Below are positions 90 through 47,842 of a DNA stretch of 51,419 nucleotides, piece after piece; positions within the stretch are counted from its first letter, which is position 1; each line of letters begins with the position of its first letter. Origin of the DNA: Chromatiaceae bacterium (lineage in GTDB: Bacteria; Pseudomonadota; Gammaproteobacteria; SZUA-140). The stretch spans positions 1 to 51,419 of the forward strand of contig QIJH01000085.1 of assembly GCA_003232725.1 (NCBI GenBank), given 5' to 3'. The position numbers and the translations under genes are program-made. The notes under the pieces are model-generated. The model was not told the origin of the DNA, did not search any database, and saw nothing but the letters and a program-made list of their open reading frames with translations.

Positions 90-105
90 AAGTGGGTCTT
101 AAAAC

Positions 106-179
106 TGGAGGCTGAGGGCGGAATCGAACCGCCGTCCACGGCTTTGCAGGCCGCTGCATAACCACTCTGCCACCCAGCC
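106..179 (-). tRNA. tRNA-Cys (anticodon GCA)
   Basis: The reverse complement reads GGCTGGGTGGCAGAGTGGTTATGCAGCGGCCTGCAAAGCCGTGGACGGCGGTTCGATTCCGCCCTCAGCCTCCA. It has anticodon loop CT-GCA-AA, the U73 discriminator typical of tRNA-Cys, and an encoded CCA. Confidence 0.95.
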
Positions 180-255
180 TGGATGGAACTCAATCACACC
201 TTAGTTCAATAAGTTACTCAAGGGGATTTAGAGAATTTAATACAGGTATAAAATT

Positions 256-331
256 TGGAGCGGGAAACGAGATTCGAACTCGCGACCCCAACCTTGGCAA
301 GGTTGTGCTCTACCAACTGAGCTATTCCCGC
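256..331 (-). tRNA. tRNA-Gly (anticodon GCC)
   Basis: The reverse complement reads GCGGGAATAGCTCAGTTGGTAGAGCACAACCTTGCCAAGGTTGGGGTCGCGAGTTCGAATCTCGTTTCCCGCTCCA. It folds as a canonical cloverleaf with anticodon loop CT-GCC-AA. Confidence 0.95.
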
Positions 332-410: not shown

Positions 411-968
411 TTATGCGTCACGAAGTATTGGCCATGCCTTACGCAGGTACTCCCACATTGACCACAAGGTCAGGGCTGCCGCAATATAGAGTGCAATGTA
501 TCCCAGCATTTCTGTTGGAATCACACCAAATAGCGGTTCGCGATACAGCAATAAAATAATCGCCGTAATCTGCGCTGCGGTTTTAACCTTACCCCACATA
601 TTCACCGCAACAATATTCCCCTGCCCTATCTCTGCCATCCACTCTCGCAATGCAGAGACGGCAATTTCACGTCCAATAATAATCACAGCAGGGATCGCCA
701 TCCAGGCCGTCGCACTCGCCTCCACCAGCAACACCAATGCCGCAGCAACCATTAATTTATCTGCCACCGGATCTAAAAACGCGCCAAAAGCAGACGTCTG
801 GTTCATCTTGCGAGCAAGGTAACCATCAAGCCAGTCGGTGATGGCGGCAATACTAAAAACAGCAGTGACCGCGATATTCGACCAGCTGACCGGCAAATAG
901 AAGAACGCCACAAACACAGGGATCAAGGCAATCCTGAGAAAGGTGAGGCTTGTTGCCGTTGTCATCAC
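411..968 (-). CDS. pgsA: CDP-diacylglycerol--glycerol-3-phosphate 3-phosphatidyltransferase
   Basis: The 185-aa polytopic ORF carries the CDP-alcohol phosphatidyltransferase motif (DWLDGYLARKMNQTSAFGAFLDPVADK). It is near-colinear with E. coli PgsA and shows the same uvrC-pgsA-tRNA synteny. Confidence 0.95.
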   Translation of the reverse strand: MMTTATSLTFLRIALIPVFVAFFYLPVSWSNIAVTAVFSIAAITDWLDGYLARKMNQTSAFGAFLDPVADKLMVAAALVLLVEASATAWMAIPAVIIIGREIAVSALREWMAEIGQGNIVAVNMWGKVKTAAQITAIILLLYREPLFGVIPTEMLGYIALYIAAALTLWSMWEYLRKAWPILRDA

Positions 969-1029: not shown

Positions 1030-2854
1030 TCATTTACCCGCATGAAAGATATCATAAATCCGCTGCGCAAGTTCGCGACTAATGCCTTTTATACTGGCTA
1101 AATCCTCAACACCCGCACGTGCTACCCCTTGCAAGCCACCAAACTGCTGCAATAGTTCGCGCCGACGTTTTGCGCCAATGCCAGGAACCCCCTCCAGTAC
1201 TGAGGTTTTTTGTGCCTTTGCACGCCGCGCACGATGACCCGTAATCGCAAAACGATGCGCCTCATCTCTAATTTGCTGAATCAAATGGAGTGCGGGCGAA
1301 TCAGCTGGCAAATTAATCTCGATGCCGCTCTCAGAAAAATAGAGCGTCTCCTCTCCCGTCTTACGCGCACGCCCTTTCGCAATGCCAATTAAATTAACGC
1401 CACTGACTTGCAACTCTTCCAGCACCTTTTCAGCCTCACGTACCTGCCCTTTGCCACCATCTATAAACAAGATATCAGGTAATTTACCCTCACCCTGCTT
1501 CAAGCGTGTATAACGCCGCATCAACGCCTGATTCATCGCCGCATAATCATCACCACCGGTAATTCCTTCAATATTAAAGCGGCGATAGTCTGATTTGAGC
1601 GCACCTTCACTGTTAAACACCACGCACGATGCCACCGTCTGCTCACCGGATGTATGGCTAATATCAAAACATTCCATTCGCTGTGGCAGACTATCCATCT
1701 GCAGCACTTCTTGCAGTGCAATAAAACGCTGCATCATATTGCTTTTGGTATTGATGTAGCGTGCAAGGTTTTGCTTTGCATTGGCAGTCGCCATTGTCAG
1801 CCACCGGCTACGCTCGGCACGCACACTACTGCTCACTGCCACTTGTCTGCCCGCTGCTTCACTCAATACTGTTTTCAACACGTCAATATCATCCAGCTGA
1901 TGATTGATAATAACCTGCGATGGAATCTCAGTTGCCCCCTCCTTACCGAGATAGAACTGCGGTAAAAATGCAGCCAGTATCTCTTCGGCTGTTGCATTAT
2001 TGGTATGACGCGGAAAAAAACTTTTATTGCCAAGGTTATGGCCATCACGAATATAAAAAACCTCGACACAGCCGATGCCATTTTGAGTCACTGAACTCAC
2101 CACATCGATATTGCCTTTATCACTACTGATGTACTGTTTCTCCTGAATAACGCGTAATGCTGCAATTTGATCGCGAAATTGAGCCGCCTTCTCATAAGCC
2201 AATTGCTCAGCGGCTTGCGCCATCTTCTCAACCAGTTCATCAATCACATGGTGGTTCTTCCCATCAAGGAACATCGCTGCCAGACGCACATCATCAGCAT
2301 ACGCAACGTCAGAAATACGCTTCGTACAAGGTGCACTACAACGTTTAATCTGGTATTGCAGACAAGGGCGAGAACGATTGCTGAAAAAACTATCTTCGCA
2401 TTGTCGAATTTGAAATAATTAGGTTTAAGGTTTCACGCACGGCTCCAGCATTTGGATAAGGCCCAAAATAACGCCCCTTCTGTTTTCGGGCACCTCGTTG
2501 CAAACTAAGTCGTGGGTACTCCTGCTCAGTCGAGAGAAATATATACGGATAGCTTTTATCATCACGCAACAGCACATTGTAGCGTGGCTTATGCTGCTTA
2601 ATCAGATTATTTTCAAGAATCAGCGCCTCAGTCTCAGTGTGGGTTGTTGTCACCTCAATGTGATCGATATGAGTCACCAGTGCGGTAAAATAACTTGAAA
2701 CACGCTTTTTCAGGTTGCGCGCCTTACCCACGTAAATAATTTCATCACACACATCAAACATGCGGTACACACCCGGGGCTTCCGACAATCCTTGTAGAAA
2801 CCCTTTAACATCAAATTCATGACGATTAGCTTCTGTCACGTTATCGATATCCAT
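1030..2854 (-). pseudogene. uvrC: Excinuclease ABC subunit C, disrupted by a frameshift (or a sequencing error)
   Basis: The N-terminal GIY-YIG part ([42 protein letters not shown]) sits in ORF 2390..2854 and ends at a TAG. The rest ([51 protein letters not shown]..HhH C-terminus) continues in another frame that is open from 2418 down to 1030. The two frames overlap at 2390..2418. Combined length is about 600 aa, normal for UvrC. Confidence 0.9.
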
Positions 2855-9136: not shown

Positions 9137-10930
9137 TTAATCATTAATAGAACCACCCGCTAACAACTGCTCAATCTTTTTAAAACCATGTTTTTTTGCA
9201 GCGCCCAGCGCAGTCTCTCCAGTATTGGAAGAGAGACGCCTATCCGCCCCATTTTTTAATAGAATAGCGGCGATATTTGCATGCCCGCCCCTGGAGGCAT
9301 AGATAAGCGCTGTCATTCCACCAATGGATATATCGCGGTGCGAGCTTGGATCAAGCTGTTCAATTGCATTCACATCCGCATCATGTGCTATCAATTGCTC
9401 AACTATACTCTGATAGCCATTTCGCGAAGCGATCATCAGCGGCGTGCGGCCTATATTATCAAATAGGTTAGGAGCCGCCTGATGGGCTAACAATAACGCC
9501 ACTGCATCAACATGCCCCTGTTCAGCAGCCTTAAATAGCGCAGTGATACCCGCCTCATTCTGAATATCAATATCAGCCCCCGCAGCTAACAGAACCTTCA
9601 TCGTTTCAACATGCCCACCATTCGCTGCGGCTATCAACAGCGAAGGTCTTTTCACTTTTTTATGGATACGTGTGATAAAACGATCTATCTTCTTTTTAAC
9701 CACTGCTCGATTCGTATCGGCACCATGCTTCAGCAATAGCATCATCAGCTCAGCATTCCCATTTCTAGCGGAAATTAATGTCGGCGTCTCTTCTTTTCGG
9801 TTAGCAACCGCAATCTTTGCCCCTTTTTCAATCAAGTAACTTGCAATTTCAACATCGCTCTTCTGAATGGCAACAAGCAAGGCCGTATCACTACGTGAAA
9901 TAGTTCTCAATAACTCCCGCTCTTTGAAAGTAACGCTAGAGCTGGCAATCCGCTGTTCTTTTAAGCCCCAAGGCACGAGGTTAACATTAGCTCCATGCTC
10001 AACTAGCGTACGAACTACCTCAATATTGCCAAAATAGACTGCTGACAATAGCGCAGTCACACCAGTATTGCTATCACGGTAATTAACGTTCGTAGATTGG
10101 TTAAGTAATAGCTGAATCTTCACCTGATCATCAATCTTAGCCGCTTTAATCAAAGACGCTTCACTGGAAAGCGCTGCATAATGAGTTTCATCACGGGCAC
10201 CCGCATTTTTCAGCGTATCGACAATCGTGCCATGATTATTCCACTGCGCAATCGTCAATGCAGTATCACCATTAGCCCGCGTTAAATTAGTATTAGCGCC
10301 ATATTTCAGCAGTGTCACCACAACCTGATTCCAGTCATCTGCTATGCCTTTTACCCCATGTTGAGCCGCAAACATCAGCGGCGTTTTACCGCCACCTTCA
10401 TTAAAAGCACCGTTGGTGACCACATTTGCATCCGCCCCTTTTGACAGCAGCAGTTCTATCATCGGCAGATGTCCATACTGAACGGCTCCCACTAACGCCG
10501 TTTCGCCATCGATCTTTTTCAGGTCAATCTTGCCACCGACCTCTAAAAGCAGATTTACGACGTCAAGATTACCGTACATGGAGGCATTCATCAGCGCAGT
10601 TGAGCCATTATTGCTTTGAGCGTTAACGTTAGCACCTCGTTCAATAAGCAGCTTGAGAATCGACTGCTTGTTTTCAGCTGCTGCAACAATCAGCGCCGTA
10701 TTCCCAAGCTCATCTTTAAGCTCAATATCTGCACCGCCATTAAGCAGATTTACAATCACGTTTTCATGACCGAACCGTGCGGCCAGTACAAAATTGTGGC
10801 CATCTAATGTTGCCTGTCCCGCTCCCTCTTCCGCACTAGCATTCATTGGCGCAATAAAAACAGCAAGTGAGATAGCACTACACAACATAATGGAAGCTAC
10901 CGTAAAGGATGGTTTTGCTAACATTTGCAT
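9137..10930 (-). CDS. Secreted ankyrin-repeat protein (about 15 ANK repeats)
   Basis: The 597-aa ORF has a signal peptide (..APMNASA/EE). The consensus G.T(A/P)L..A...G....V..LL..GA..N recurs across the whole protein. Confidence 0.9.
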   Translation of the reverse strand: MQMLAKPSFTVASIMLCSAISLAVFIAPMNASAEEGAGQATLDGHNFVLAARFGHENVIVNLLNGGADIELKDELGNTALIVAAAENKQSILKLLIERGANVNAQSNNGSTALMNASMYGNLDVVNLLLEVGGKIDLKKIDGETALVGAVQYGHLPMIELLLSKGADANVVTNGAFNEGGGKTPLMFAAQHGVKGIADDWNQVVVTLLKYGANTNLTRANGDTALTIAQWNNHGTIVDTLKNAGARDETHYAALSSEASLIKAAKIDDQVKIQLLLNQSTNVNYRDSNTGVTALLSAVYFGNIEVVRTLVEHGANVNLVPWGLKEQRIASSSVTFKERELLRTISRSDTALLVAIQKSDVEIASYLIEKGAKIAVANRKEETPTLISARNGNAELMMLLLKHGADTNRAVVKKKIDRFITRIHKKVKRPSLLIAAANGGHVETMKVLLAAGADIDIQNEAGITALFKAAEQGHVDAVALLLAHQAAPNLFDNIGRTPLMIASRNGYQSIVEQLIAHDADVNAIEQLDPSSHRDISIGGMTALIYASRGGHANIAAILLKNGADRRLSSNTGETALGAAKKHGFKKIEQLLAGGSIND

Positions 10931-32120: not shown

Positions 32121-33359
32121 TTGATTTATCACATGTTTCCCACCGCGAAAGTTGTCCTGCCTATCGTTATCGTTATAATCGGCTTCGCTGCGGCATTGCA
32201 GATCACCTCATATACACCACAGGCAGCCGCAGTACCTAATTCGACAACCCGTACAGCAGACGTATTCACCGTTGAGGTACTTAACGTCGCTTTACAGGAA
32301 GTTCGTATCCCTATACGAAGCCAGGGCCGCATCATTCCCCGAACCACTATAGATCTGTCTGCAGAAATTTCCGGTAAAGTCACTGAAATCGACCCCGATT
32401 TTGCTGCCGGGGGGCGCTTCAAAAAAAATGACACCCTTGTCAAAATCGATGATCGAGATTATAAACTGGCAATCGTCAAAGCAGAGGCGATTATTGCCAG
32501 CGCTCGGGCTCGCCTGACAAAAGCCGACGCGGAGTACCAACAAAAACAGAAGGAATACTACGCCCAAGGTTTGGAGGATGTCCCCCCTTATGCCCTGCGC
32601 AAACCTCAATATGATGAAGCATTAGCCAACATGAAGGCTGCCGAGGCAGATCTGGAGTTGGCAAAACTTGCCCTAGAGCGCACTCGGGTAACAGCACCGT
32701 TTGACGGACGTGTCGTAGAAACAACGACAGATGTCGGCCGCTATGTGACCCGCGGCACCGCACTGGGGAAGATATACGCAATGGATGTGGTAGAGGTCTA
32801 CCTGCCAGTATCACAACGGCAGGCACACATGCTCGAACTCCCTCAAGGCACCTCGCTAGACCAAAGCCCACTACGTGTTTCACTTACTGAGATCTTCTCG
32901 GGTAAAGGGCACACCTGGTCAGCACGCGTCGTCAGAACCAGTGCCACAGTGAGCGAAAATAATCAGTTATTATATTTAATCGCCCAAGTAGACACCCCTT
33001 ATTTTTCACAAGATACCAATGATGGACAACAGTCTCTGACAATCGGTACGTTTGTAACGGCAGAACTACAAAGCAAACCGCTTACTGATATAGTTGTTTT
33101 ACCCCGCCAAGCATTAGGCGAAAACAAATTCGTATGGGTGGTTGATGACCATTCAACTCTGCGCAAGCGCCAAGTTGAAATCGCTTACCTGGGCAAGCAT
33201 AATGCCTATATCAATGGCTTAGCACCAGGCACCCGCGTGGTCGTCAGCACCTTAGAGGGCGTCTTAGAGGGCATTACCATACGTATAACCAGAACACATG
33301 AACCCACCACCGCCACTGAATCACTAGCAAAACCGGCGGCCAAACCTTCGACTCTGTGA
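32121..33359 (+). CDS. RND efflux periplasmic adaptor (membrane fusion protein)
   Basis: The ORF has an N-terminal TM anchor, a lipoyl/hairpin coiled-coil region (AEADLELAKLALERTRVTAPFDG) and a beta-barrel C-terminus. The likely start is the ATG at 32133. Confidence 0.88.
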   Translation: MIYHMFPTAKVVLPIVIVIIGFAAALQITSYTPQAAAVPNSTTRTADVFTVEVLNVALQEVRIPIRSQGRIIPRTTIDLSAEISGKVTEIDPDFAAGGRFKKNDTLVKIDDRDYKLAIVKAEAIIASARARLTKADAEYQQKQKEYYAQGLEDVPPYALRKPQYDEALANMKAAEADLELAKLALERTRVTAPFDGRVVETTTDVGRYVTRGTALGKIYAMDVVEVYLPVSQRQAHMLELPQGTSLDQSPLRVSLTEIFSGKGHTWSARVVRTSATVSENNQLLYLIAQVDTPYFSQDTNDGQQSLTIGTFVTAELQSKPLTDIVVLPRQALGENKFVWVVDDHSTLRKRQVEIAYLGKHNAYINGLAPGTRVVVSTLEGVLEGITIRITRTHEPTTATESLAKPAAKPSTL

Positions 33360-33374
33360 AACAGATCAAATCAC

Positions 33375-36300
33375 GTGAAATATTTGAACATGTTAATCAA
33401 ATGGTTCTCCAACAACCGTGTCGCCGCCAATTTCCTGATGCTGATTATCATCGTCGGTGGATTACTGTCTCTTCCCGACCTCAAGAAAGAGGTCATCCCC
33501 AATGCCGCGTTAAATATGATACAAATCCATATCACTTATCCCGGCGCCGCCCCCAAAGAAGTGGAGCAATCTATATGCATGCGACTTGAAGAGGCGATTT
33601 TTAATCTGAGCGGGGTCAACGAGTTAATAACCAGGGCCAAAGAGGGGCAGTGTGGTGCCCTGGTAAAAGTGGCTGCCGGATTTGATCCTCGTTTTCTTCA
33701 GGATGCGATACGATCACGGGTCGAGGCTATTAACGATTTCCCCGCTGAAGCTGAACAGGCAGTCATCACTGAAATGTTTATTCGCACGCCTGTCATTAGC
33801 GTCGTCATATATGGGGAAAACAATGAAAAAACATTAAAAAATTTCTTGCAAAAAACACAGTTCGAATTACAGAGTTTACCCTCAGTAAGCCAAGTGGAAA
33901 TTAACAACGTTAAACCCTATGAAATCTCTATTGAGGTCTCGGATGTTGCCCTAAGATTGCATGACTTAACATTTTCCGAGGTAGCTGAGGCGATAAGGTC
34001 TAACTCAATAGATCTCGCCGGGGGCATGATCAACAGCCCTAATGGAAACATAGCACTTAAAACACAGGGCCAGGCCTATACGGGAAAAGAATTTGAACAG
34101 ATTCCAATACGCGCAGTTAAAGATGGCTCATACTTACAGGTAAATGACATCGCCACGGTAGTCGACGAGTTTAAACAGTCAGACCGAGAGAGCCACTATA
34201 ATGGTTACAAGGCGGGGTTATTAACCGTCTACCGTGTCGGCAATCAAAATATTCTTTCGCTCAGCAATGAAGTCAAGGAGTACGTCAAAAAAACCAATCA
34301 TGATTTACCCGCCGGTATTGGGGTAGAGATTTGGCAGGATCATTCACAGATGTTTACGAGTCGCCTTGAACTCTTAACCAAGAGCGCCCTGATGGGCCTA
34401 ACCCTGGTATTAATGGTCTTGGTTATTTTTTTACGCTGGCGTGTGGCCATTTGGGTAAGCATGGGTATTGTGGTCTCTTTTATGGGCACTCTGTTTCTGC
34501 TCGTCATCCTCGGGCAATCGATCAATATGATCTCCATGTTTGCCTTTATCCTGGTGCTGGGAATAGTCGTAGACGATGCCATTATCGTCAGTGAAAGCAT
34601 ATTTACCCAACAACGAAAGGGGGTTACTGGCATCGCCGGTGCCGTAGCTGGCACTTTAGCGGTAGCCAAACCGGTCACCGTATCAGCACTTACTACGATG
34701 CTCGCATTTTCGCCTATTTTATTTTTACCCGGCATTTCGGGCAGCCTCTGGAGCATCATCGCGATCGTGGTTATTGCAACTCTGGCCTTCTCTTTAATAG
34801 AGTCCTTACTGATACTGCCCACTCATTTGTCCGGCAGTGCCACTCCTCACAACAATACCAAACGCCCATTCAGCCGCCTGGCACGATTACAAGAAAGCTT
34901 TGTGACGCGGAGTGAACAATTCGTCTCAGAAACCTATAAAAACATACTGGCTGTGATATTACGATGGCGTTATGCAACAATCGCCCTTGCATTCACTGTT
35001 TTTGTTATCTCCGTGGCCCTGGTGGCGGGGGGGCGCTTACCTTTGGTATTTTTCCCCCAAATGGAGGGTGACATGATAGTCGCAAGTGTAAAACTACCTT
35101 CGAACAGCACATTAGATCAAACTCAGAAAGTCTTAAGCACCCTGGAATCTGCTGCCAGAACGTTACAACAAAGCCCCCAGAATCAAGATGGCGTTATCCG
35201 GGCCACCTTAACAACCCTGGGCGCTCAACCACAGAGCGGGGGAGCAGAAACAGAGAGCATCAGCAACATTGGCGAAGTCGCTCTAGAACTGATCCCAGCC
35301 GATTCTCGCCATTTGAGTGGCACGGAGATTATTCAACGTTGGCGAGATTCAGCTGGAACACTTCCTTTCGACGCCAAGGTCATTTTTAGTTCGACCTTAG
35401 ACCCTAAGACGCCTGACATTGCTCTTATATTGTCCGGCCGAGATCCCGAACAACTCCAGCAAGCAGCCAAACAACTTAAAGAACATTTGCGCACCGATCC
35501 CACCATATACAACATAAAAGATTCAATGGAGGATAAGATGAGCGAGGTGCGCGTGCAACTAAAACCTTACGCCAACAACCTCGGACTGGATACAACCTCC
35601 CTGGCTCGACAAGTCCGCCAGGCTTTCTACGGTGAAGAGGTGCAGAGCATACTCAGAGGATCCGAAGAAGTGAAAGTCTTTGTCCGTTATACCGCTGATG
35701 AACGACAGTCTCTCTACACTTTGGAAAACATGACCATTCGCTTGAACAATGGCGACAACGTACCTATAGCAGCGGTAGCTGATTTTATTTATGGATACAC
35801 CCCTAAGGAAATCCGCCGCGTAGATGGTGAACGGGTTATAACGGTAAGTGGTTATGTGGACCACGCCATTACCACTCCCGGCCATGTTATGCATACACTA
35901 GATGAACATTTTTGGGCAGACTTTGAATACCGCTATCCAGATATAAAGCGACACCTGTCAGGCAGCCAGGAGGAACAAAGCGATATTATTGCAGCGCTTA
36001 TAAAAGGACTATTTCTAGCGGTGTTGGCCATTTATGGACTGATAGCGGTGTCATTTCGCTCATATAGCCAGCCATTGATCATACTGGCTGCAATACCAAT
36101 GGGATTTGTAGGTGCAGTCGCAGGACATTTCCTCTTGGATCTACAGCTTAGCGTTCTCTCCCTGTGCGGGGTCATCGCCGTCGCGGGCGTGGTCGTCAAC
36201 GATAATCTGGTATTAGTCGAGTATATCAACCGGGCCAGAGACAAAGGAAGCGATTTATTTGAAGCGGTTAGCCAAGCCGGAATTGCCCGGTTTCGGCCTA

Positions 36301-36539
36301 TTATATTGACATCCGTGACGACATTTTTCGGACTGCTACCCCTAATGCTGGAACGCAGTACTCAGGCCCAGTTTTTAGTCCCTATGGCAGCTTCGTTGGC
36401 GTTTGGTGTACTGTTTGCCACCATAGTGACTCTGCTGGCCGTACCCGCCGCTTATATCATTGTGGAAGATCTGAAGAAGCTGATTACATTGCCTGTAAAA
36501 AAAATCGCCAAGAAGCGGCGGCAATATAGTAATGCTTAG
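33375..36539 (+). CDS. RND family efflux permease (AcrB/AcrD/AcrF type)
   Basis: The 1054-aa ORF has 12 TM segments and two large periplasmic loops. It carries the conserved GIVVDDAIIV and AGVVVNDNLVLV motifs. Confidence 0.92.
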   Translation: MKYLNMLIKWFSNNRVAANFLMLIIIVGGLLSLPDLKKEVIPNAALNMIQIHITYPGAAPKEVEQSICMRLEEAIFNLSGVNELITRAKEGQCGALVKVAAGFDPRFLQDAIRSRVEAINDFPAEAEQAVITEMFIRTPVISVVIYGENNEKTLKNFLQKTQFELQSLPSVSQVEINNVKPYEISIEVSDVALRLHDLTFSEVAEAIRSNSIDLAGGMINSPNGNIALKTQGQAYTGKEFEQIPIRAVKDGSYLQVNDIATVVDEFKQSDRESHYNGYKAGLLTVYRVGNQNILSLSNEVKEYVKKTNHDLPAGIGVEIWQDHSQMFTSRLELLTKSALMGLTLVLMVLVIFLRWRVAIWVSMGIVVSFMGTLFLLVILGQSINMISMFAFILVLGIVVDDAIIVSESIFTQQRKGVTGIAGAVAGTLAVAKPVTVSALTTMLAFSPILFLPGISGSLWSIIAIVVIATLAFSLIESLLILPTHLSGSATPHNNTKRPFSRLARLQESFVTRSEQFVSETYKNILAVILRWRYATIALAFTVFVISVALVAGGRLPLVFFPQMEGDMIVASVKLPSNSTLDQTQKVLSTLESAARTLQQSPQNQDGVIRATLTTLGAQPQSGGAETESISNIGEVALELIPADSRHLSGTEIIQRWRDSAGTLPFDAKVIFSSTLDPKTPDIALILSGRDPEQLQQAAKQLKEHLRTDPTIYNIKDSMEDKMSEVRVQLKPYANNLGLDTTSLARQVRQAFYGEEVQSILRGSEEVKVFVRYTADERQSLYTLENMTIRLNNGDNVPIAAVADFIYGYTPKEIRRVDGERVITVSGYVDHAITTPGHVMHTLDEHFWADFEYRYPDIKRHLSGSQEEQSDIIAALIKGLFLAVLAIYGLIAVSFRSYSQPLIILAAIPMGFVGAVAGHFLLDLQLSVLSLCGVIAVAGVVVNDNLVLVEYINRARDKGSDLFEAVSQAGIARFRPIILTSVTTFFGLLPLMLERSTQAQFLVPMAASLAFGVLFATIVTLLAVPAAYIIVEDLKKLITLPVKKIAKKRRQYSNA

Positions 36540-37423: not shown

Positions 37424-38284
37424 CTACCGTTCAAACTGATATAACAGACCGAAAAAAAACGTGGTCTGGAAATCACGCTCGACGATGGGACTGCGGGTAA
37501 TCTCATCGCTTAACCATTCGTGTTTAAATGATGCACTGCCACGCCACTGATTGCCAAAGTCATAGCTGAAATTAAGCCCCAAATTCATGTTAAGCGCAGA
37601 ATCGCCCAGATAGGCGGGGCGCCCTAACGTCGCTTCACCGGCACGAACACCATAATAATAATCCACTAACTCATGGTTTTTCATAGACACACCTACCACC
37701 CCACCTATACTGGCACGATTGCTAAGTTCAAACACATGGTCAGCCCCCAATTGAATTTCATAACCGTTGTGAGTATTGGTTATGTCCATAGCAGCGGACA
37801 TAAAAAGCGCGGCAAAACGAAACTCCAAACCTAACTCAAAAGCGCCATCACGCCCCTCCATGCCTGCAAGCAGAGGGCTGTTAGAATCTTCGTCAAACCC
37901 TTCAAAACGATAGTTTACCGTACCGGCCAGGAAGAATGGCAACGTTTTACCTCGCAGGAGTTTATAGTTGAGATACGGCCCCATCCATATAATATTCTCA
38001 CCGATATAACCCACTATCGGATATATTGGTGAAACCGTATCAGCATCTCCTATAAATGGATTTGGACCCTCTACCGCAGCAAAACCGGCAACCCAACCCG
38101 GCGGGGCACGCTCACTGAATCCTAATGGCGCAGTGCTTGCCATTAAGGGAGGAATTGCGAACAAGAGCCCCCCCCCGATACAGCACTGATAGTACCTAAT
38201 CCCGAAGCCTTTCCATCTTGTTTGCAAGAGGGAAAGGAATTGATGCATAAGCTTTGCACACATGGAAACCCAGGTCATAGACAT
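37424..38284 (-). CDS. MipA/OmpV family outer-membrane protein
   Basis: The ORF shows a beta-barrel alternation pattern and a C-terminus ..FFFGLLYQFER ending in an aromatic residue plus x. It resembles the second paralog at 47006..47842. Confidence 0.75.
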   Translation of the reverse strand: MSMTWVSMCAKLMHQFLSLLQTRWKGFGIRYYQCCIGGGLLFAIPPLMASTAPLGFSERAPPGWVAGFAAVEGPNPFIGDADTVSPIYPIVGYIGENIIWMGPYLNYKLLRGKTLPFFLAGTVNYRFEGFDEDSNSPLLAGMEGRDGAFELGLEFRFAALFMSAAMDITNTHNGYEIQLGADHVFELSNRASIGGVVGVSMKNHELVDYYYGVRAGEATLGRPAYLGDSALNMNLGLNFSYDFGNQWRGSASFKHEWLSDEITRSPIVERDFQTTFFFGLLYQFER

Positions 38285-39600: not shown

Positions 39601-40044
39601 ATGGACATTTTGCCGTATAACAGCAATCGAGATCTTGATCTTTATATCGCGGGAGAACTGCAATCCATCAAAAATTCAAAGCCCAACATAATAATACCTG
39701 ACTATATCATAGAAGGGATCAAGCAAAATTATCAGACCATGATAAACAGCGACGCTTTATCGGGCTTTACCGCCGTAGACAATCAACCATTCGGGTTCAT
39801 CGTTGTTTCCAGGGAAGAGGGCATAGACCAATCCTACGGCCTGATCAGGAACCTATATATCAGGCCAGAAAATAGAGGCGCACGGGCATGGAAAGCACTT
39901 GTACAGCGTGTTGAAACTCACTTCAAAGACCTGGGGTTGAATAGAATTGGCTTAGAAATATATAAGTCCAATGAATCAGTATGCAACCTAGCCCGCCTTT
40001 CCGGATATTCCATGGAGCGCTACTATATGGAAAAGGCTATTTGA
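39601..40044 (+). CDS. GNAT family N-acetyltransferase
   Basis: The 147-aa ORF has an acetyl-CoA motif A region (LYIRPENRGARAWKALVQRVE). A strong AAGGAG Shine-Dalgarno sequence precedes it. Confidence 0.8.
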   Translation: MDILPYNSNRDLDLYIAGELQSIKNSKPNIIIPDYIIEGIKQNYQTMINSDALSGFTAVDNQPFGFIVVSREEGIDQSYGLIRNLYIRPENRGARAWKALVQRVETHFKDLGLNRIGLEIYKSNESVCNLARLSGYSMERYYMEKAI

Positions 40045-40063
40045 CATTTATACAATATTTTAT

Positions 40064-42259
40064 TTATAAGGCTAAAGTAGAGGCCTGCTCTGGATGAAGC
40101 GCCTGCTCAGCCTTTCCACTAAGGCTAATAGCGAAGGCATAACTGATAGACATATTTTTCAACTGTGAAAAACGACCTGCTGGCCCGCTATGGCCTGAGT
40201 TCATATCTGTGCTTAGCAGCACCACACTGTGGTTAGTCTGACAGTGCCTCAACCGAGCAACCCATTTCGCCGCCTCCCAGTAACCTACCCGGCTATCGGT
40301 AAGGCCACACAGGGCAAGCACATGGGGATAGTCCTGCTCCTCAAGATTATCATAAGGTGAATACATGGCAATTTGATTATAGATGGCGGGATCTATCAAT
40401 GGATTTCCCAGCTCGGCCCAATCAGATGGTGTCAACGGCAGGTCTTTATCTAGCAACGAATTTAATACATCCACAAAAGGAACCCCGGCAATAATTGCAT
40501 TAAATAATCCTGGAGCAATATTGGCAGCAGCAGCTACCAAGGTACCACCCGCACTAACACCATGAGCGGTAATATTACCTCTAGAGGTGTACTTGTGTTT
40601 CACTAGATACTCTGCCGAAGCGATAAAATCAGAAAAACTGTTCATTTTATTATTCAACTTTCCTTCACTATACCAGTGACATCCCAACTCACGGCCACCA
40701 CGTACATGGGCAATAACATAAACAAACCCTCTATCGACCAAGCTAAAAAGTTCCGGTGAAAAAACCGGCACAACGCTATAACCATACGCACCATAGCCAT
40801 GCAAAAAAGTGGGGGCCGATCCGTCTAACAATGTCTCACTATGATAAAGCAATGAAAGAGGTATGCGTCTACCATCAGGCGTCGTGGCAAACAAACGCCG
40901 GGAAACATAGTTCTCAGCTCTATATTCCGCATAGACTTTCTGTTTCTTAATAAGCCGACAGCTGCAGTTACTAAGATCGTATTCAAGCAAACACCCAGGC
41001 GTACGCAGAGAACTGTAATACATCATTAGATTATCGGTATCATATTCGTAACCACCGACAATATCTAAATCATAGGCTTCATCCTCCATACCCGCCACAG
41101 GCAGTTCGTACTCATGGCTGTCATCAAGATTATAGATAATAATTCGTTTCAGACCACTGCGGGATTCAACCCGAGCATGATAATGCTTCAATGCCACATG
41201 TTTTAATATGTGACACCCTGGCCGATGAGGAACCATGGATTCCCAATAGGCACTACCCGGCTTGGTAACTGGAGCAATGACAATACGAAAATCCCCGGCA
41301 TCCCCAGCATTTGTGAGAATCATAAAATAACCCGGGCCAGGATGAGCGCTGTGTTCAATTTTATACTGAATCCCCGTACAACGTGGCTCTACAATAAATG
41401 ATTCAGCTTGGCAGTTAGAAAGATCAATCAGATGCAATTCATTGGCCCCATGAGCATAAGCACTGATAACTGCATAATAACCACTCTGCGTGCTCTGGAG
41501 TCCTACATAATAGGCCGGATCGTTCTCTTGATAAATCAAACGATCATCTTGCTGATCTTCACCTAACGTATGCGCATAAACTTTGGATGGTCTATCGTAT
41601 TCATCTCTGGCAACATAATAAATTACGTGACTATTCCGACTCCATACAACCTTTCCTGACGTATTATGGAGAATATCGGGCAGATCCTCCCTATGTTCCA
41701 TATCCCTAAATGATACAGAGAAACTCTCCGAACCACTACTATCCCAAGACCAGGCGAAATACCGATGATTAGGGCTATGCTGCCGGCAGGCAATCACAAT
41801 TCGTCGTCCCACCCTAGACAAAGCTGCATCGTCTAATATAATCTCCTCTGCCTGACTACCATCACGTGGGCGGCGGCAATAATATGGATAATCTAAGGTG
41901 GAGAGATAACGCTCATAATAAAGATAAGGGCCATCGGGAATTTCGATGCCAGTTTGATCGTGAAGCATTCGCGCATTGAATTCACCATTGAGGGTTTCGA
42001 TAAGAGGATCTATAGGCTGCAATACCTCACGGGTATAACTATTCTCTGTTTCCAGGTGACCCGCAATGTGAGGAGCCAAACAATCAGGGGATGACAATAT
42101 GCTGCGCCAGTTAGGATCTCGCATCCAGCTATAAGGATCAGTTCTTTTTTTTCCATGAATAGTATGTTCCTCTATCACACTTTCAGCGACAGGGGCCGGC
42201 ATTTCCAATACACGTGTCATTAAAGGACTAATACAGGTATTTAATTGTTTAAATAACAT
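40064..42259 (-). CDS. ptrB: S9A serine peptidase, oligopeptidase B (protease II)-like
   Basis: The ORF has an N-terminal beta-propeller and a C-terminal catalytic domain. The nucleophile is GVSAGG, followed by ..VPFVDV..SPYDN..GLTDSRVGYWEAAKWVARLR..TDMNSGHSG... It is colinear with E. coli PtrB (GGSAGG, MDSGHGG). It lies 23 nt downstream of the ABC gene on the same strand. Confidence 0.88.
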   Translation of the reverse strand: MLFKQLNTCISPLMTRVLEMPAPVAESVIEEHTIHGKKRTDPYSWMRDPNWRSILSSPDCLAPHIAGHLETENSYTREVLQPIDPLIETLNGEFNARMLHDQTGIEIPDGPYLYYERYLSTLDYPYYCRRPRDGSQAEEIILDDAALSRVGRRIVIACRQHSPNHRYFAWSWDSSGSESFSVSFRDMEHREDLPDILHNTSGKVVWSRNSHVIYYVARDEYDRPSKVYAHTLGEDQQDDRLIYQENDPAYYVGLQSTQSGYYAVISAYAHGANELHLIDLSNCQAESFIVEPRCTGIQYKIEHSAHPGPGYFMILTNAGDAGDFRIVIAPVTKPGSAYWESMVPHRPGCHILKHVALKHYHARVESRSGLKRIIIYNLDDSHEYELPVAGMEDEAYDLDIVGGYEYDTDNLMMYYSSLRTPGCLLEYDLSNCSCRLIKKQKVYAEYRAENYVSRRLFATTPDGRRIPLSLLYHSETLLDGSAPTFLHGYGAYGYSVVPVFSPELFSLVDRGFVYVIAHVRGGRELGCHWYSEGKLNNKMNSFSDFIASAEYLVKHKYTSRGNITAHGVSAGGTLVAAAANIAPGLFNAIIAGVPFVDVLNSLLDKDLPLTPSDWAELGNPLIDPAIYNQIAMYSPYDNLEEQDYPHVLALCGLTDSRVGYWEAAKWVARLRHCQTNHSVVLLSTDMNSGHSGPAGRFSQLKNMSISYAFAISLSGKAEQALHPEQASTLAL

Positions 42260-42282: not shown

Positions 42283-43689
42283 TCATAGTTTGTGCCTAAC
42301 TTCAACGACCATTTTCCCACTCATTACTAGCTCATCAAGTTTTCGCGATACACTTATGACCTTATTACTATCAAGGTTCGCATCCCATTCATCTAGCAAA
42401 AATATATCAATGCCTTTTTGCTTAGAAATTTCATCGATAATTTGGATAACTTGCTCACCTGTGGAGCCATCTTTCTGGTTTAGAAAGAACAGATTATGCA
42501 TTGCCGGCAAATAAAAGCTCCTTTCCCCAAAATATTCTTTCATAGAAAGCAATAGACTGGTCTTGCCCGTACCATTATCTGCCTGTATGGTTACCCGCCC
42601 TTTTTCAGAAAGAGATTTACACCATTGATCGGTACTTTGCGACGCATTGATAGAGGGTGCACCGGCAACCGTAATTTCTTGAAATTTTATACGCTTATCC
42701 AGATCATCCATTTTGGTCTCATTGAAAAACTGGTCTACCAAAACGAGAGTACCTTTAACAAAGTTATACTGGGCGATGATAGTCATCATTGCCGTCATAG
42801 AATTTATCACTTGAACAATTTTCGGTAGAGCCACCAGCAAAACAATAAACGACTCACTAGCAACTCCATAATACTGAATCAGGAAAATAACAATTAAAAT
42901 AGTGGGGATAAATGCAGCAAACGAAAGAACTAGCTGAACAGCACACCTTGCTGTGGTTGACCTAACTTTAGCGGTGCGATAGTGCTTGAAAAAATTAACT
43001 TTATTGCTTCCCCAGGCATCTTTATTTAGTGTGTTTCCGATAACCAAATTATCCCAGACTGAGGAAAGGGCACCAGTCAAAGTAAGCAGTTTTCTCTCCG
43101 AAGTATAGGCCGTGACTTTCAAAAGTTTTCCGTATTTGAATATTATCAATGCGCATAAAACCACACTAATAAGATAAGAAACAATTATAAGCTCATCAAC
43201 CACAAATGCCATTATCAATATAGTTGTCACGGACATCAACATTGCGGAGAGAAGCTGATAGATGTACTCAGGATAGCTAGCCACAATCATTGGCCCAACC
43301 TTACTGTACATACTCGTCATTTTTTCTTTCTTTCTACCATCTGGGAACATAGCAACTTTACTGGACAAAACCGCCTGCCCTTCGATCGTAAATTGTTCTA
43401 TAGATTTTATCTTCCACTTTTCGAGAAAAATAGAGCTATACATTCCAAAAACATGGCCGCCGAGTATAAGCAAAAAATAGCTATACAAATTTGATATGAA
43501 AAAAGATCCGCTACTGACTGAACGTGCGAGCTCGGCAAGAAAATAGATTGATGAAGCCGTTAGGAAATATTGAATGAAAATAAGAAATATTGTAATAGTT
43601 CTCTCACTACATCGAAAGATTCGTTGTCTAATCAGTGGATCAGTCATAATCAACCTAAAATATAAACTAAAGAGGGCATCTGCACTCAC
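42283..43689 (-). CDS. Fused permease-ATPase ABC exporter with an unusually compact NBD
   Basis: About 330 aa with about six TM helices are followed by about 130 aa carrying Walker A-like DNGTGKTS, a signature-like STGEQ, Walker B IFLLDEWD and a terminal His (VRHKL). There is no N-terminal C39 peptidase domain. The start may be the internal MTDPLI... Confidence 0.75.
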   Translation of the reverse strand: MSADALFSLYFRLIMTDPLIRQRIFRCSERTITIFLIFIQYFLTASSIYFLAELARSVSSGSFFISNLYSYFLLILGGHVFGMYSSIFLEKWKIKSIEQFTIEGQAVLSSKVAMFPDGRKKEKMTSMYSKVGPMIVASYPEYIYQLLSAMLMSVTTILIMAFVVDELIIVSYLISVVLCALIIFKYGKLLKVTAYTSERKLLTLTGALSSVWDNLVIGNTLNKDAWGSNKVNFFKHYRTAKVRSTTARCAVQLVLSFAAFIPTILIVIFLIQYYGVASESFIVLLVALPKIVQVINSMTAMMTIIAQYNFVKGTLVLVDQFFNETKMDDLDKRIKFQEITVAGAPSINASQSTDQWCKSLSEKGRVTIQADNGTGKTSLLLSMKEYFGERSFYLPAMHNLFFLNQKDGSTGEQVIQIIDEISKQKGIDIFLLDEWDANLDSNKVISVSRKLDELVMSGKMVVEVRHKL

Positions 43690-43767
43690 TGCGCACAGAC
43701 ACCCCCGCTTCCGACCTACCTAAACCAGGCATTAAACCCTAGTTTTCGGTAAAAAAGGATTTAGGAT

Positions 43768-43947
43768 TTAGAATCTAAAAGTCCAAGTCCATTTGCCACT
43801 CTGTTCTTCACTGTGCATACCACCTGCAGCATTGGCAGCCAGTTCACGGCCTGCCTTAGCTATAGATTGGTCTTGGTTTTCAGTGTAAGCAACAAATTTT
43901 TCAGCGACATCAGCCAAGTTAGCACAAGAAATTTCAGTAGTCTTCAT
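43768..43947 (-). CDS. RiPP precursor peptide candidate (59 aa), C-terminal core ..GG-MHSEEQSGK-WTWTFRF
   Basis: I translated this by hand: MKTTEISCANLADVAEKFVAYTENQDQSIAKAGRELAANAAGGMHSEEQSGKWTWTFRF*. An AGGAGG Shine-Dalgarno sequence lies 7 nt upstream of the ATG. The ORF sits between the radical SAM gene (70-nt gap) and the ABC gene (78-nt gap) on the same strand. It is absent from the ORF track only because it is under 60 aa. Confidence 0.8.
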   Translation of the reverse strand: MKTTEISCANLADVAEKFVAYTENQDQSIAKAGRELAANAAGGMHSEEQSGKWTWTFRF

Positions 43948-44017
43948 AATATTTCCTCCTAAGGAAAAGTTAACAAATATACTTCATGGTAAAGTTAAAA
44001 AACCATCCACTATCATC

Positions 44018-45433
44018 TCAAGACACCCCAACCTGTGGCTTTTCTTCACGACTCCGTGAAGAGCTGTACTGCTGGGGAAAACCTAATTTTCCGTCGATGT
44101 GCTTCAACAAGGATGACAAACCACAACACGACCCTTGGTAATCTTTCGAAAACCTTTTGTTTAACAGCTGGTCGTGAATACAACCCCCTTTGCAGACTGA
44201 GAAATACTCACAGCACCCCATTTTATCAGGCACCTTTTTCATCTCTCTGCGAAAATCACTAAGATTCTTTGATTCACTTAATATATCGCCCAGGTGGGAC
44301 TCCATAACATTGCCAAAAATATAGCTAGGATGGCCTATGTATTTATCGCAAGCGCCGATATCTCCGTTTGCCTCCAAGGTGACATACTTACCCATGCAGT
44401 CACCTTCAAACAGGCAGTTAAGATCATTTTGCTGGCCTTTCAGACGATCAATCAAGTTCTGCATTCCGGTGACCTTGAATTTATCTCTATGCGGCCACCA
44501 CTCATCACACACCTCAATCAAAAATTCGACAAACTCTGGATAAGGAAGATATTTCCCAATAACCTTAGTAGAGCCTATATTATTTTCAGGAAGCACATTC
44601 AGCAGGTCTATGCCGTGCAACCCCGACTCCAGCATATATTCAACCAACCGTTTTGCACCGAGATTTTTGACTTCTTTATCAACAACCACCAACGCACCAG
44701 TCTTTATGCCGGCATCACCCAATTTTTTTATCCCCGCTAAAACTCTTTCGGAAGTAGCTTTCCCCTCTACATCAACTCTACGCGTGTCATTGATTTCAGG
44801 CGGGCCATCCAGACTAACGCCGACACCAATTTTGTACGCCTTAATAAACTCAACCCACTCATCAGACAAATCAACGGCATTAGTCTGTATGCCATTTTCA
44901 ACCTGCTGCCCCACAGATCTGAAGTGTTCTTGCATCCACATCATTTTTATAAAAAACTTTGGATTTAAAAGTGTAACCTCTCCCCCATGCCATACAATAT
45001 GAATTTTTTTTGCATTTGGTAAGGAAATAATTTCCTTCATCGCCCTTGCCAATATTTTAAAAGACATAACCTGGTTAGGCCCCTCGGCCCACGAACGGCA
45101 GTATGTACAACGCAGATTACATAACCTAGTCGCTTTAACAATAACAATAAGAGAACTAGACAGGGCCTTGGCGGACGAAGTGGGCTCTTGACAGACAGCC
45201 TCAAAGATTACCTTCTCTCTAGGGCTTAAAATACTATCTACTGGCATCACCCCAAGTTGTTTTATCACATCCGTTTCACCTTCGCTAATCTTCAGCAAAG
45301 CAGAAAACTTAATTTTTTCATCTTCAGATAGTGACTCTTTGAAGTCACCAATAACTTTCTCCCAACGTGAAGGATATTTTCCTGAAGCAATTTCTTTAAT
45401 AGGGATTTTTTTAAGCAAAGAGTCATTATCCAT
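44018..45433 (-). CDS. Radical SAM enzyme with a SPASM-type C-terminal auxiliary-cluster domain (RiPP maturase candidate)
   Basis: The ORF has CNLRCTYC (CX3CX2C) at about residue 106 and the GGE motif WHGGEVTL. The C-terminal Cys clusters are NCLFEGDC..GACDKY, CCEYFSVCKGGCIHD and SCCG. An N-terminal extension of about 100 aa precedes the SAM cluster. Confidence 0.88.
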   Translation of the reverse strand: MDNDSLLKKIPIKEIASGKYPSRWEKVIGDFKESLSEDEKIKFSALLKISEGETDVIKQLGVMPVDSILSPREKVIFEAVCQEPTSSAKALSSSLIVIVKATRLCNLRCTYCRSWAEGPNQVMSFKILARAMKEIISLPNAKKIHIVWHGGEVTLLNPKFFIKMMWMQEHFRSVGQQVENGIQTNAVDLSDEWVEFIKAYKIGVGVSLDGPPEINDTRRVDVEGKATSERVLAGIKKLGDAGIKTGALVVVDKEVKNLGAKRLVEYMLESGLHGIDLLNVLPENNIGSTKVIGKYLPYPEFVEFLIEVCDEWWPHRDKFKVTGMQNLIDRLKGQQNDLNCLFEGDCMGKYVTLEANGDIGACDKYIGHPSYIFGNVMESHLGDILSESKNLSDFRREMKKVPDKMGCCEYFSVCKGGCIHDQLLNKRFSKDYQGSCCGLSSLLKHIDGKLGFPQQYSSSRSREEKPQVGVS

Positions 45434-46397
45434 AATGAATATCCTATTTATCGTCCCTTACTGTCAATAATGCCGTTGTTGATTTAGCTAGGAATTCTAG
45501 AGCCTAACTTCTCTTTGTTCAACTGTCCTTTCGTACAGAAATTAATATTTTCTATATGTAAGAAAGCCCCATCTATATGACAAACATACAGACACAAAAA
45601 ACAAACACATTTTTTAAAGAAAATTTTTTAATAGATATTGAATATCATTCAAATATAAGACTACTCACACAGTAACAAATTTTTATCAGTGCCTGGCAAT
45701 ACTATTGTTTGGCGAGCGGCACAAAAAAACACGCCGACAATACTTCGTTTTGTCAGTAAATTTAAAAATAATCACACCGCGTTATAATGATCGTGTCTTC
45801 TTTTCCAATGAGAAAGGCATCATTCGTAAGCTCAACAAATCCCATCTAACAATCACATAGTAATATCGCTATCATTTTGATTTCAACATCATCAAGGCGG
45901 GTTACATAACTTCGAATTAAAAAAAATAGTTCTGGCAACAGCACATTCATGAGTAAAATAAAAACAAACTTCCACAAAGAAATCATTGCTAACAATATAA
46001 TATCTTCTTTGCCAATGTTGGTTGTTAGCGAATGCGTTTGAATCGCTTGGACAATTCTGTGACGAAGCCAATACCAAAGCTGGTACCAGTTTTAACGCGC
46101 ACTACGATGGTGATACAGATGACGCTATCGATGAGCATACTCAGCGATTTTCAAGGGAGTTGTCGCCTAAAATTTAAATTTATGCGGCCTTGTTCTCTTT
46201 GCTTTCTGAGTTAACTTTCTCCGGGATTAGATGAATGTTGGTTATTCGGTTCCAGTCTCTGGTTTAACCCGACCAACAGCTGGGATTTTTTGGTTTTTCA
46301 TGTTCATCAACACGTTTCCGTTTGGCCACCCCAGCGATGAGCAAAAACGAGTCGTGCCAACTACACCTCCTGGGCCATATCCATAACAGTTACCGAA

Positions 46398-47005: not shown

Positions 47006-47842
47006 ATGACTTATAAACACCTTATCGCTGCAACACTATTACTCGCTACCATAGCGCCGAGTGCCTATGGTCAGCAACTGCCACGCTGGGAGCTAGGCAT
47101 AGGGGTTGGTGGATTAAACCTGCCAGATTATCGAGGTTCAGATATCTATCGTAATTATGTGATCCCATACCCATACATCACCTATCGCAGTGAACATCTC
47201 AACATTGACCGAGGCGGTATTCAGGGACATCTATTTAAAACAGACAAGGTGAAACTTGATCTTAGTTTAGCAGCGGGTATTCCCGTCTCAAGCGGCAGAG
47301 GCGGCCCACGTGCAGGGATGCCAGACCTCGACCTAACCGTTGAACTAGGCCCCTCACTTGAATTCAATCTGTGGCAACCGAACCACAAGCGTCAATCACT
47401 ATCGCTTAAGTTACCCCTACGCTCCGCACACTCTATCGGTGGAGATGGACTCTTCAAACATCGTGGCTGGACTTTTTCTCCCTTTCTTGAATACACCGCT
47501 AAAAGCCTCAAACCTGATGACTGGAAAACAAGCATCTCAATAGGCCCACTCTATGCTGACCGCGATTACCACAACTATTTTTATGAAGTTCGGTCAGCGT
47601 ATGTCACAGCTGCCCGCAGTGAATATAATGCAAGCGGTGGCTACAGTGGTGCGCGTACCACGTTAACAATTAGAAAACATCTCACCGACAAACTCCAACT
47701 CGGTGCATTCGCGCGCCTTGATACCCTTAAAAACAGTGCATTTGAAGAGAGCCCACTGGTCTCAACAAAACAGTACCGAGCATTAGGCATCACACTGATC
47801 TGGATGCTATCTCAATCCGATGAGATGGTTCACGTCCCATAA
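47006..47842 (+). CDS. MipA/OmpV family outer-membrane protein (second paralog)
   Basis: The ORF has a signal peptide (..APSAYG/QQ), the segment WELGIGVGGLNLPDYRGSD typical of MipA family N-termini, and beta-strand periodicity. Confidence 0.75.
   Translation: MTYKHLIAATLLLATIAPSAYGQQLPRWELGIGVGGLNLPDYRGSDIYRNYVIPYPYITYRSEHLNIDRGGIQGHLFKTDKVKLDLSLAAGIPVSSGRGGPRAGMPDLDLTVELGPSLEFNLWQPNHKRQSLSLKLPLRSAHSIGGDGLFKHRGWTFSPFLEYTAKSLKPDDWKTSISIGPLYADRDYHNYFYEVRSAYVTAARSEYNASGGYSGARTTLTIRKHLTDKLQLGAFARLDTLKNSAFEESPLVSTKQYRALGITLIWMLSQSDEMVHVP

Follow-up and report, generated by a model that had tools for sequence, protein, structure and literature searches.

We analyzed a 51,419-nucleotide stretch of DNA from a Chromatiaceae bacterium (GenBank assembly GCA_003232725.1, contig QIJH01000085.1), referred to below as the window. 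Its minus strand carries a short open reading frame (ORF) that follows a gene for an enzyme of the radical S-adenosylmethionine (rSAM) type with a SPASM domain and ends in the aromatic heptapeptide WTWTFRF. Along this strand, the order is rSAM enzyme, precursor ORF, hairpin, a membrane protein with an ATP-binding cassette (ABC)-like domain, and an S9 peptidase; a GNAT acetyltransferase gene lies on the plus strand. Sister alleles of the ORF are present in two metagenomic loci, L001 and L073. The features at the center of this analysis are as follows.

44018..45433, minus strand: rSAM/SPASM peptide maturase of the DarE/DarW family, in a deep clade of its own (Pfam, NCBIfam and tree)
43768..43947, minus strand: precursor peptide gene, 59 aa plus stop (translation, Shine-Dalgarno sequence, and syntenic ORFs in L001 and L073)
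43771..43791, minus strand: core peptide W53-T-W-T-F-R-F59, with an invariant G51-K52 upstream (identical in three alleles)
43672..43706, minus strand: terminator-like hairpin with a 14-bp stem and a U tract, about 60 nt past the precursor stop (pattern scan and folding)

The precursor gene and its sister alleles

The minus-strand translation of 43768..43947 is MKTTEISCANLADVAEKFVAYTENQDQSIAKAGRELAANAAGGMHSEEQSGKWTWTFRF, followed by a stop codon, exactly as proposed in the initial annotation; it closes with SGKWTWTFRF. With 59 codons and an ATG start, the ORF falls below a 60-aa cutoff and is missed when that limit is applied, as had been pointed out. The Shine-Dalgarno (SD) sequence AGGAGG is found at 43955..43960, with a spacing of 7 nt to the ATG, and the ORF lies 70 bp downstream of the rSAM gene. 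The earlier description of the ORF as unannotated holds in that the product has no name, but not in the sense of an uncalled gene: an identical product is already in a public protein collection. A degenerate pattern back-translated from WTWTFRF occurred once in the window, compared to 0 occurrences in 100 shuffles. The antisense frame of the ORF is also open.

We assign residues 1 to 52 (DNA 43792..43947) to the leader, with Lys52 at position -1, and residues 53 to 59 to the core. The initial annotation had already recognized the seven-residue C-terminal core; the leader, which it had ended at residue 43, has to be extended. Within the leader, an amphipathic V14-A-E-K-F18 motif can be aligned to the leader helix of precursors from the rest of the family. 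The hairpin at 43672..43706 (-41 kcal/mol; z = -3.6) may end or attenuate the rSAM-precursor transcript, and a GC-rich hairpin occupies the corresponding position in L001.

Searches of about 15 billion public proteins revealed just two further precursor alleles, those of L001 and L073. A word-indexed search of 5.8 billion proteins recovered only the window peptide itself, and an exhaustive HMMER/phmmer search of 1.84 billion representatives yielded a single sister cluster containing only these peptides. L001 and L073 are independent contigs from metagenomes or metagenome-assembled genomes, and each has a 60-aa ORF with its own SD sequence at the same distance after the rSAM gene. At the DNA level, the K-WTWTFRF pattern gave 15 matches in metagenome DNA, none of them with a leader or a nearby rSAM gene, which marks all of them as chance matches. 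Scanning genome contigs with the rSAM protein gave no match, and scanning them with the family alignment recovered generic rSAM motifs and only distant enzymes at ≤31% identity.

The leader of the window peptide is 53% identical to those of the sister alleles, which differ from each other at three leader positions. In contrast to the residues just upstream, which vary, the last nine residues of the window peptide, GKWTWTFRF, are invariant in all three alleles. The sister alleles have an extra C-terminal Arg (WTWTFRFR). Comparing the window with L001, we obtained a dN/dS of 0.28 for the precursor (dS = 1.16). The nine-codon tail showed three synonymous and no nonsynonymous changes (core dN = 0), and all three of these changes would be nonsynonymous if the antisense frame were read. 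The stretch from the rSAM gene to the precursor forms one continuous 1.7-kb DNA alignment block between the window and the sister locus, with 70% identity. A drifting leader with a frozen core is the pattern expected of the precursor of a peptide that is made by ribosomes and modified posttranslationally (RiPP). The initial annotation had set conservation of the frame in related loci as the test of its call, and the frame is kept in both. Judged from sequence comparison, the ORF is a genuine precursor gene under purifying selection, and it looks translated.

The maturase and its family

The product of 44018..45433 is a 471-aa protein with the Pfam domains Radical_SAM and SPASM. A CX3CX2C motif begins at residue 105, and the SPASM and cluster-binding cysteines are invariant in the family alignment. 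The enzyme also has an N-terminal extension of about 100 residues; DarE, the darobactin maturase, uses such an extension in place of a RiPP recognition element. The best NCBIfam matches were DarW (520.3 bits; E = 3e-156) and DarE (431.5 bits; E = 3e-129). The maturase is 74% identical to the L001 enzyme and ≤46% identical to all others. In a distance tree, these two enzymes form a deep clade of their own, the other family enzymes being 37 to 44% identical.

The broad daropeptide definition of Ma et al. 2023, as summarized in PMC10849128, combines a DarE-like enzyme with a C-terminal aromatic-x-aromatic motif. In the window, a DarE-like rSAM/SPASM gene adjoins the precursor, whose C terminus contains two such motifs, W53-T-W55 and W55-T-F57, both invariant in the three alleles. 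By this broad published definition, the precursor belongs to the daropeptides, with the ether cross-link itself a prediction. The comparison to DarA-type precursors made in the initial annotation is borne out, as is its link to the rSAM enzyme: the precursor has a C-terminal aromatic core and an adjacent DarE-like enzyme.

None of the curated models for narrower groups recognized the pair. The maturase scored below the 650-bit cutoffs of both the DarE equivalog NF038005 (431.5 bits, compared to 769 bits for a control Pseudoalteromonas DarE) and DarW, NF041300 (520.3 bits, compared to 792 to 800 bits for true DarW proteins). A true DarE cross-scores 524 bits on the DarW model, and the window enzyme did no better. 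The precursor gave no match, even at E ≤ 10, to the darobactin_RiPP model NF038004 (cutoff, 45 bits; control DarA, 71.9 bits) or to the model of DynW-associated RiPPs, NF041299 (cutoff, 40 bits; Rhizobium and Leptolyngbya controls, 121 and 67 bits). The locus also differs from canonical type I darobactin loci: core position 5 is Phe and not Lys/Arg, and the window cluster lacks the trio of MacB, membrane fusion protein (MFP), and ABC genes.

To place the core among its relatives, we sampled the loci of enzymes 37 to 46% identical to the window maturase. Each locus contains a small ORF with a C-terminal Trp-x-aromatic core; its place is right behind the rSAM gene in all but the Pseudoalteromonas dar operon. 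All of the sampled precursors have the aromatic-x-aromatic motif at the C terminus, and their cores include the following.

Myxococcus (NCBI-named DarW): WTWTWPF
Metagenomic DarW (L049): WQWGWPF
Rhizobium sullae: WSF-NI-WNY-RF (a daropeptide published as having two discrete ethers)
Devosia: WTF-DI-WKH-SF
Leptolyngbya: WVF-S-WTY-RF
Pseudoalteromonas DarA: WNWSKSF-EK (canonical dar operon, in which darE comes after the precursor)

In DarA, Leu(-31) and Phe(-27) are required for processing by DarE (PMC10705402); V14 and F18 of the window leader may be their counterparts.

WTWTFRF was absent from the searchable full-text literature. The term "DarW" returned nothing relevant, and no published product was found under it. 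Nor did we find a report of a natural fused-diether daropeptide in the literature searched, a scope that leaves out most subscription journals, including the 86-precursor data set of Ma et al. 2023. The new elements here are a third-of-a-kind core, a maturase clade that is distinct and escapes the curated models, and a conserved protease/GNAT pair; the class, the enzyme superfamily, and the predicted chemistry are not new. The subfamily is rare, with three alleles in about 15 billion proteins, and goes undetected by every curated model. This explains how a reading of the letters alone could turn up a peptide that annotation pipelines leave un-named.

Predicted cross-links and candidate accessory genes

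We consider it likely that the ORF encodes the precursor of a daropeptide, that is, a darobactin-like RiPP, with a predicted fused Trp1-Trp3/Trp3-Phe5 diether and with the S9 peptidase, the GNAT, and the ABC-like protein as accessories. According to our model, the leader helix (containing VAEKF) would dock on the rSAM enzyme at its long N-terminal extension, and the enzyme would then install Trp-C7-O-C-beta ethers from Trp1 to Trp3 and from Trp3 to Phe5. The mature heptapeptide WTWTFRF is probably doubly cross-linked. The product would be a fused bicyclic diether with a mass shift of +27.958 Da, which gives the free heptapeptide a calculated [M+H]+ of 1071.468, compared to 1043.510 when unmodified; the same calculator reproduces the published photorhaptin mass of 770.3620.

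The core merges two known patterns: the register of darobactin, W1-x-W3-x-X5-x-F7, and WTFRF, the sequence of photorhaptin A, which is the product of the pas cluster of Photorhabdus asymbiotica. Two laboratories have shown that the outcome in this family is controlled by the substrate: an aromatic acceptor leads to an ether, and aliphatic Lys/Arg leads to a C-C bond (PMC10705402). The rationale, supported by calculations, is that an aromatic acceptor residue stabilizes the benzylic C-beta radical (PMC10705402). Photorhaptin A receives a Trp-O-C-beta-Phe ether from the P. asymbiotica enzyme (PMC9055067). The engineered darobactin variant K5F gave a robust +28-Da product, solved by nuclear magnetic resonance (NMR) as a fused Trp1-Trp3/Trp3-Phe5 diether (PMC10705402). 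We therefore predict a fused diether for WTWTFRF, which shares the W-x-W-x-F-x-F pattern with K5F. The Mitchell group has noted WNWSFRF and WRWSWPF as natural cores whose position 5 is aromatic and has predicted natural fused diethers (PMC10705402). The earlier suggestion that a second ring on an aromatic side chain would be new chemistry is not supported, given the known photorhaptin A ether (PMC9055067) and the NMR-proven K5F diether (PMC10705402). It also rests on a misreading, as the cross-links of this family go to C-beta of residue 3 or 5 rather than to the aromatic ring.

Three further genes in the window are candidates for accessory functions.

40064..42259, minus strand: oligopeptidase-B-like S9 serine peptidase, 731 aa (Peptidase_S9_N and S9 domains); candidate leader peptidase
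39601..40044, plus strand: GNAT N-acetyltransferase (Acetyltransf_1), convergent with the S9 gene; candidate tailoring enzyme
42283..43647, minus strand: membrane protein with a compact ABC-type nucleotide-binding domain (NBD), 454 aa (Walker A NGTGKTS, STGEQ, Walker B IFLLDEW, terminal His)

The rSAM enzyme, precursor, GNAT, and S9 peptidase are encoded by the only genes common to the window and L001/L073, with identities between the window and L001 of 74%, 53%, 54%, and 61%, respectively. The flanks are unrelated across the loci (HinT/MipA in the window, Mfd in L001, and a transposase fragment in L073), and the genes that separate the precursor from the GNAT/S9 pair are unrelated as well. 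The GNAT and S9 genes are arranged tail to tail, 2 to 20 bp apart, in every locus (window, 39601-42259; L001, 10334-12975; L073, 5903-8520; and L066 to L068). Relative to the rSAM-precursor pair, the window and L001/L073 show this block in opposite orientations. As the pair is shared by the window, L001, and L073 despite their unrelated flanks, we argue that the protease and the acetyltransferase belong to the pathway.

The best PDB matches of the S9 protein were to oligopeptidase B (410 bits, versus 190 bits for prolyl oligopeptidases), and its Ser/Asp/His motifs are intact; it scored 424 bits against the 1,313-bit cutoff of the E. coli-type OpdB equivalog. This co-conserved protease could cut after the invariant Lys52 and thereby free the core. 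FlaP, OphP, MpgP, and WprP2 are precedents for S9 proteases in RiPP pathways (PMC12957482). The GNAT is a near-orphan, with relatives only in L001, L073, and L066 to L068 among 5.8 billion proteins searched, and it showed no similarity to the GNAT of the Devosia type III locus. It may acetylate the product (+42.011 Da). The photorhaptin (pas) cluster also has a GNAT, the function of which is reported as unknown (PMC9055067, PMC10849128), and its authors suspect that photorhaptin is an intermediate (PMC10849128).

The ABC-like protein is predicted to have about six long helices followed by a mini ABC ATPase domain of about 110 residues, which is about half the normal size. It has a weak NCBIfam match to an ABC exporter transmembrane domain, and its C-terminal 40 aa align with the Walker B, D-loop, and H-loop regions of canonical exporters. 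No Pfam or PDB match above threshold and no close database relatives were found, and its single-sequence AlphaFold2 model was unusable (pLDDT, 37). The protein may export the product, a role that we assign with low confidence; it is not conserved in the sister loci, where different genes hold its place. We rejected the idea that its 468-aa ORF is an ABC gene truncated by the inversion of the GNAT/S9 block: the NBD motifs continue up to an H-loop at the terminus, and no related ORF lies past the GNAT.

Several points weigh against the proposed product and its maturation. The reaction rules are carried over from enzymes that are only 37 to 44% identical to the window maturase, and both enzyme and peptide fall under every curated subfamily threshold. 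Gly-Lys here replaces the critical Thr(-2) of DarA, and the extra C-terminal Arg of the sister alleles obscures C-terminal processing. An acidic pair in the S1 pocket of OpdB confers Lys/Arg specificity; the corresponding region of the S9 protein reads SDW(A/I)E instead of GE(Y/F)(D/E)E, so that this specificity is not assured. The GNAT-S9 linkage could reflect shared ancestry, as it is represented by two lineages only and the L066 to L068 contigs are too short to show an rSAM gene. The second ether is the weakest step, since with DarE the K5W and K5Y variants formed the 3-5 ether only partially (PMC10705402; PMC9055067). DarE homologues of other clusters put just one ether on a foreign substrate (PMC10705402; PMC9055067).

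This last behavior makes a monocyclic product the main rival. The same precursor and enzyme would yield a single ether, which would be Trp53-Trp55 or, following photorhaptin A, Trp55-Phe57, and the remaining aromatic residue would stay unmodified or be part of a trimmed leader. In photorhaptin A, whose WTFRF matches the last five residues here, a single ether (+14 Da) was seen (PMC9055067), and the window cluster resembles the pas cluster in having a GNAT and no DarBCD. However, W53-T54 and G51-K52 are invariant while the residues upstream vary, which argues that W53 is part of the functional core, and the W-x-W-x-F pattern gave a robust diether with DarE. On this evidence, we regard a monocyclic product as unlikely, though deserving of attention. 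The darobactin topology, in which the Trp1-Trp3 ether is combined with a carbon-carbon bond between C6 of Trp3 and C-beta of Phe5 (+11.96 Da), would fit the heptad register and an enzyme of the same family. It appears improbable, as the +12-Da species was only a trace when Phe occupied position 5, with the diether dominant, and calculations tie aromatic C-beta radicals to ether formation (PMC10705402). The fused diether is the product that we favor over both.

Two other readings concern the nature of the ORF itself, and we give neither of them much credence. The initial annotation stressed a Gly-Gly motif; the GG dipeptide at residues 42 and 43 and the ABC-like protein encoded next door would suit a double-glycine-type bacteriocin precursor, cut after Gly43 by a C39 peptidase ABC transporter to free the 16-mer MHSEEQSGKWTWTFRF. 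Yet both sister alleles read ATGA-I where the window has AAGG-M. The cluster encodes no C39 peptidase domain, and the ABC-like protein, itself absent from the sister loci, has neither room for nor a match to one. A Gly-Gly leader is therefore unsupported, and the conserved junction is G-K/W, for which the oligopeptidase-B-like protease is the candidate. As for a chance, untranslated ORF, the peptide is short, has no family model match, and faces an open antisense frame. These features are outweighed by the strong SD sequence, by the frame, length, and position kept in three alleles, and by the proximity of a peptide-modifying rSAM enzyme. Purifying selection, the invariant core, and the conserved frame together effectively exclude a chance ORF. 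The daropeptide precursor with a predicted fused diether is thus the reading that we carry forward.

Genomic context, significance, and known systems

The cluster has a G+C content of 0.33 to 0.43, lower than that of its flanks, and the G+C-poorer segment from the rSAM gene to the ABC-like gene suggests horizontal acquisition. Upstream of the rSAM gene, 45434-46397 is an AT-rich stretch of about 960 bp (G+C, 0.33 to 0.37) that contains several promoter-like sites but no ORF of more than 61 aa. It has no similarity to the upstream regions of L001 and L073, and L073 has a transposase fragment on the equivalent side. The surrounding genes form an ordinary chromosomal neighborhood, and their content supports a gammaproteobacterial origin: uvrC-pgsA-tRNA Gly/Cys/Leu, Rsd, glpK/glpD, RND efflux, MipA, hinT, guaA, and guaB. 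Genes for MipA/OmpV-family outer membrane proteins are found on both sides of the cluster, at 37424-38284 (minus strand) and 47006-47842 (plus strand). An RND efflux pair (MFP and AcrB-type pump) lies within a few kilobases of the cluster in three loci (window, 32121-36539, plus strand; L073, 8781-12893, minus strand; L001, 13212-14192, minus strand). The pumps of the window and L001 are 27% identical, which probably reflects coincidence and not conserved export.

Farther from the cluster, uvrC appears split into a GIY-YIG N-terminal domain (2390-2854, minus strand) and a part covering UvrC model positions 184 to 573 (1030-2289, minus strand); this may be a frameshift, a pseudogene, or a sequencing error. 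It is followed by pgsA (411-968, minus strand) and by tRNA-Gly(GCC), tRNA-Cys(GCA), and tRNA-Leu(TAA) within 3-331 (minus strand), the same order as pgsA-glyW-cysT-leuZ in E. coli, which is in favor of a gammaproteobacterial origin. An Rfam scan of the window returned these three tRNAs only. At 9137-10930 (minus strand), a 597-aa ankyrin-repeat protein is encoded. At the level of its repeats, it matches Ank effectors of the Legionella Dot/Icm system, with every score far below the family cutoff, possibly a hint of a host-associated lifestyle.

In the sister loci, a gene for a secreted 433-aa Omp85-like barrel directly follows the WTWTFRFR precursor (L001, 7581-8882; L073, 3150-4451); it is absent from the window. 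Its matches, to the Omp85 family model NF047779 (E = 3e-11, below the cutoff) and to the BamA barrel (E = 1.5e-4), are weak but specific, and it contains an LGGFSRLRSY motif like that of Omp85 loop 6. Because BamA is the target of darobactin, this protein is a candidate resistance or decoy protein or an export barrel. The gene may hint at a BamA/Omp85 target, with self-resistance or a decoy function as possible roles of its product.

Very few new scaffolds kill Gram-negative bacteria; darobactins and dynobactins belong to these few and act by blocking BamA. If our prediction is correct, the natural W-x-W-x-F core means that the fused diether, so far obtained only by mutagenesis, is used in nature with a cognate evolved enzyme. 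The S9 protease and the GNAT provide candidates for daropeptide leader removal and for the role of the cluster acetyltransferase. A bolder proposal is possible but, on balance, doubtful: that the product is a fused bis-ether analogue of darobactin, the first from nature, made by an unrecognized deep maturase clade with its own oligopeptidase-B-type leader peptidase and GNAT, and that the (possibly N-acetylated) WTWTFRF bicycle acts on BamA/Omp85-type insertases. The WTWTFRF locus is in any case a good genome-mining lead, as it represents a rare branch of an antibiotic-like peptide family, and its product is directly testable.

Among known systems, the pas cluster (cluster IV of Guo et al. 2022), compared through its published description, is similar in the C-terminal WTFRF, the DarE-like maturase, the cluster GNAT, and the absence of DarBCD (PMC9055067; PMC10849128); photorhaptin A belongs to the type II daropeptides of Ma et al. 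2023. The window core differs by an extra W-T before WTFRF, which supplies a second donor Trp and gives the darobactin-length heptad. In addition, the S9 protease is co-conserved in the window subfamily, and no protein except that of L001 (P0003) is more than 46% identical to the maturase. The window GNAT has no detectable relatives outside its own subfamily.

Darobactin A (DarA/DarE, darABCDE) shares the C-terminal W1-x-W3-x-X5-x-F7, a precursor of about 58 aa, an rSAM/SPASM enzyme with an N-terminal extension, and an amphipathic leader helix. In the window, Phe replaces Lys/Arg at position 5, and a second ether would therefore take the place of the C-C bond. The rSAM gene precedes the precursor, DarBCD are absent, positions -3 to -1 are S-G-K and not I-T-A, and the window proteins stay below the thresholds of the NCBIfam DarE and darobactin_RiPP models. 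The W-x-W-x-F-x-F pattern recurs in darobactin K5F (Woodard et al., PMC10705402), whose NMR-proven fused diether is the structure predicted here. K5F, however, is a laboratory variant made via Photorhabdus DarE, with N, S, and S at positions 2, 4, and 6, compared to T, T, and R in the window; it did not suppress growth of E. coli (PMC10705402).

The DarW family (NF041300; e.g., Myxococcus faecalis, WTWTWPF) is the best-scoring curated model for the window maturase and is similar in W-T-W-T plus an aromatic position 5 and in a precursor directly after the rSAM gene. Its core ends in W-P-F and not F-R-F, the enzymes are 44% identical, and DarW loci lack GNAT and S9 genes. Finally, type III daropeptides and DynW-associated RiPPs (e.g., Rhizobium sullae) share the DarE-like maturase, ether-only chemistry (predicted in the case of the window), and an -RF end. 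Their two separate W-x-aromatic motifs give discrete rings, whereas those of the window overlap at Trp3, for which fused rings are predicted.

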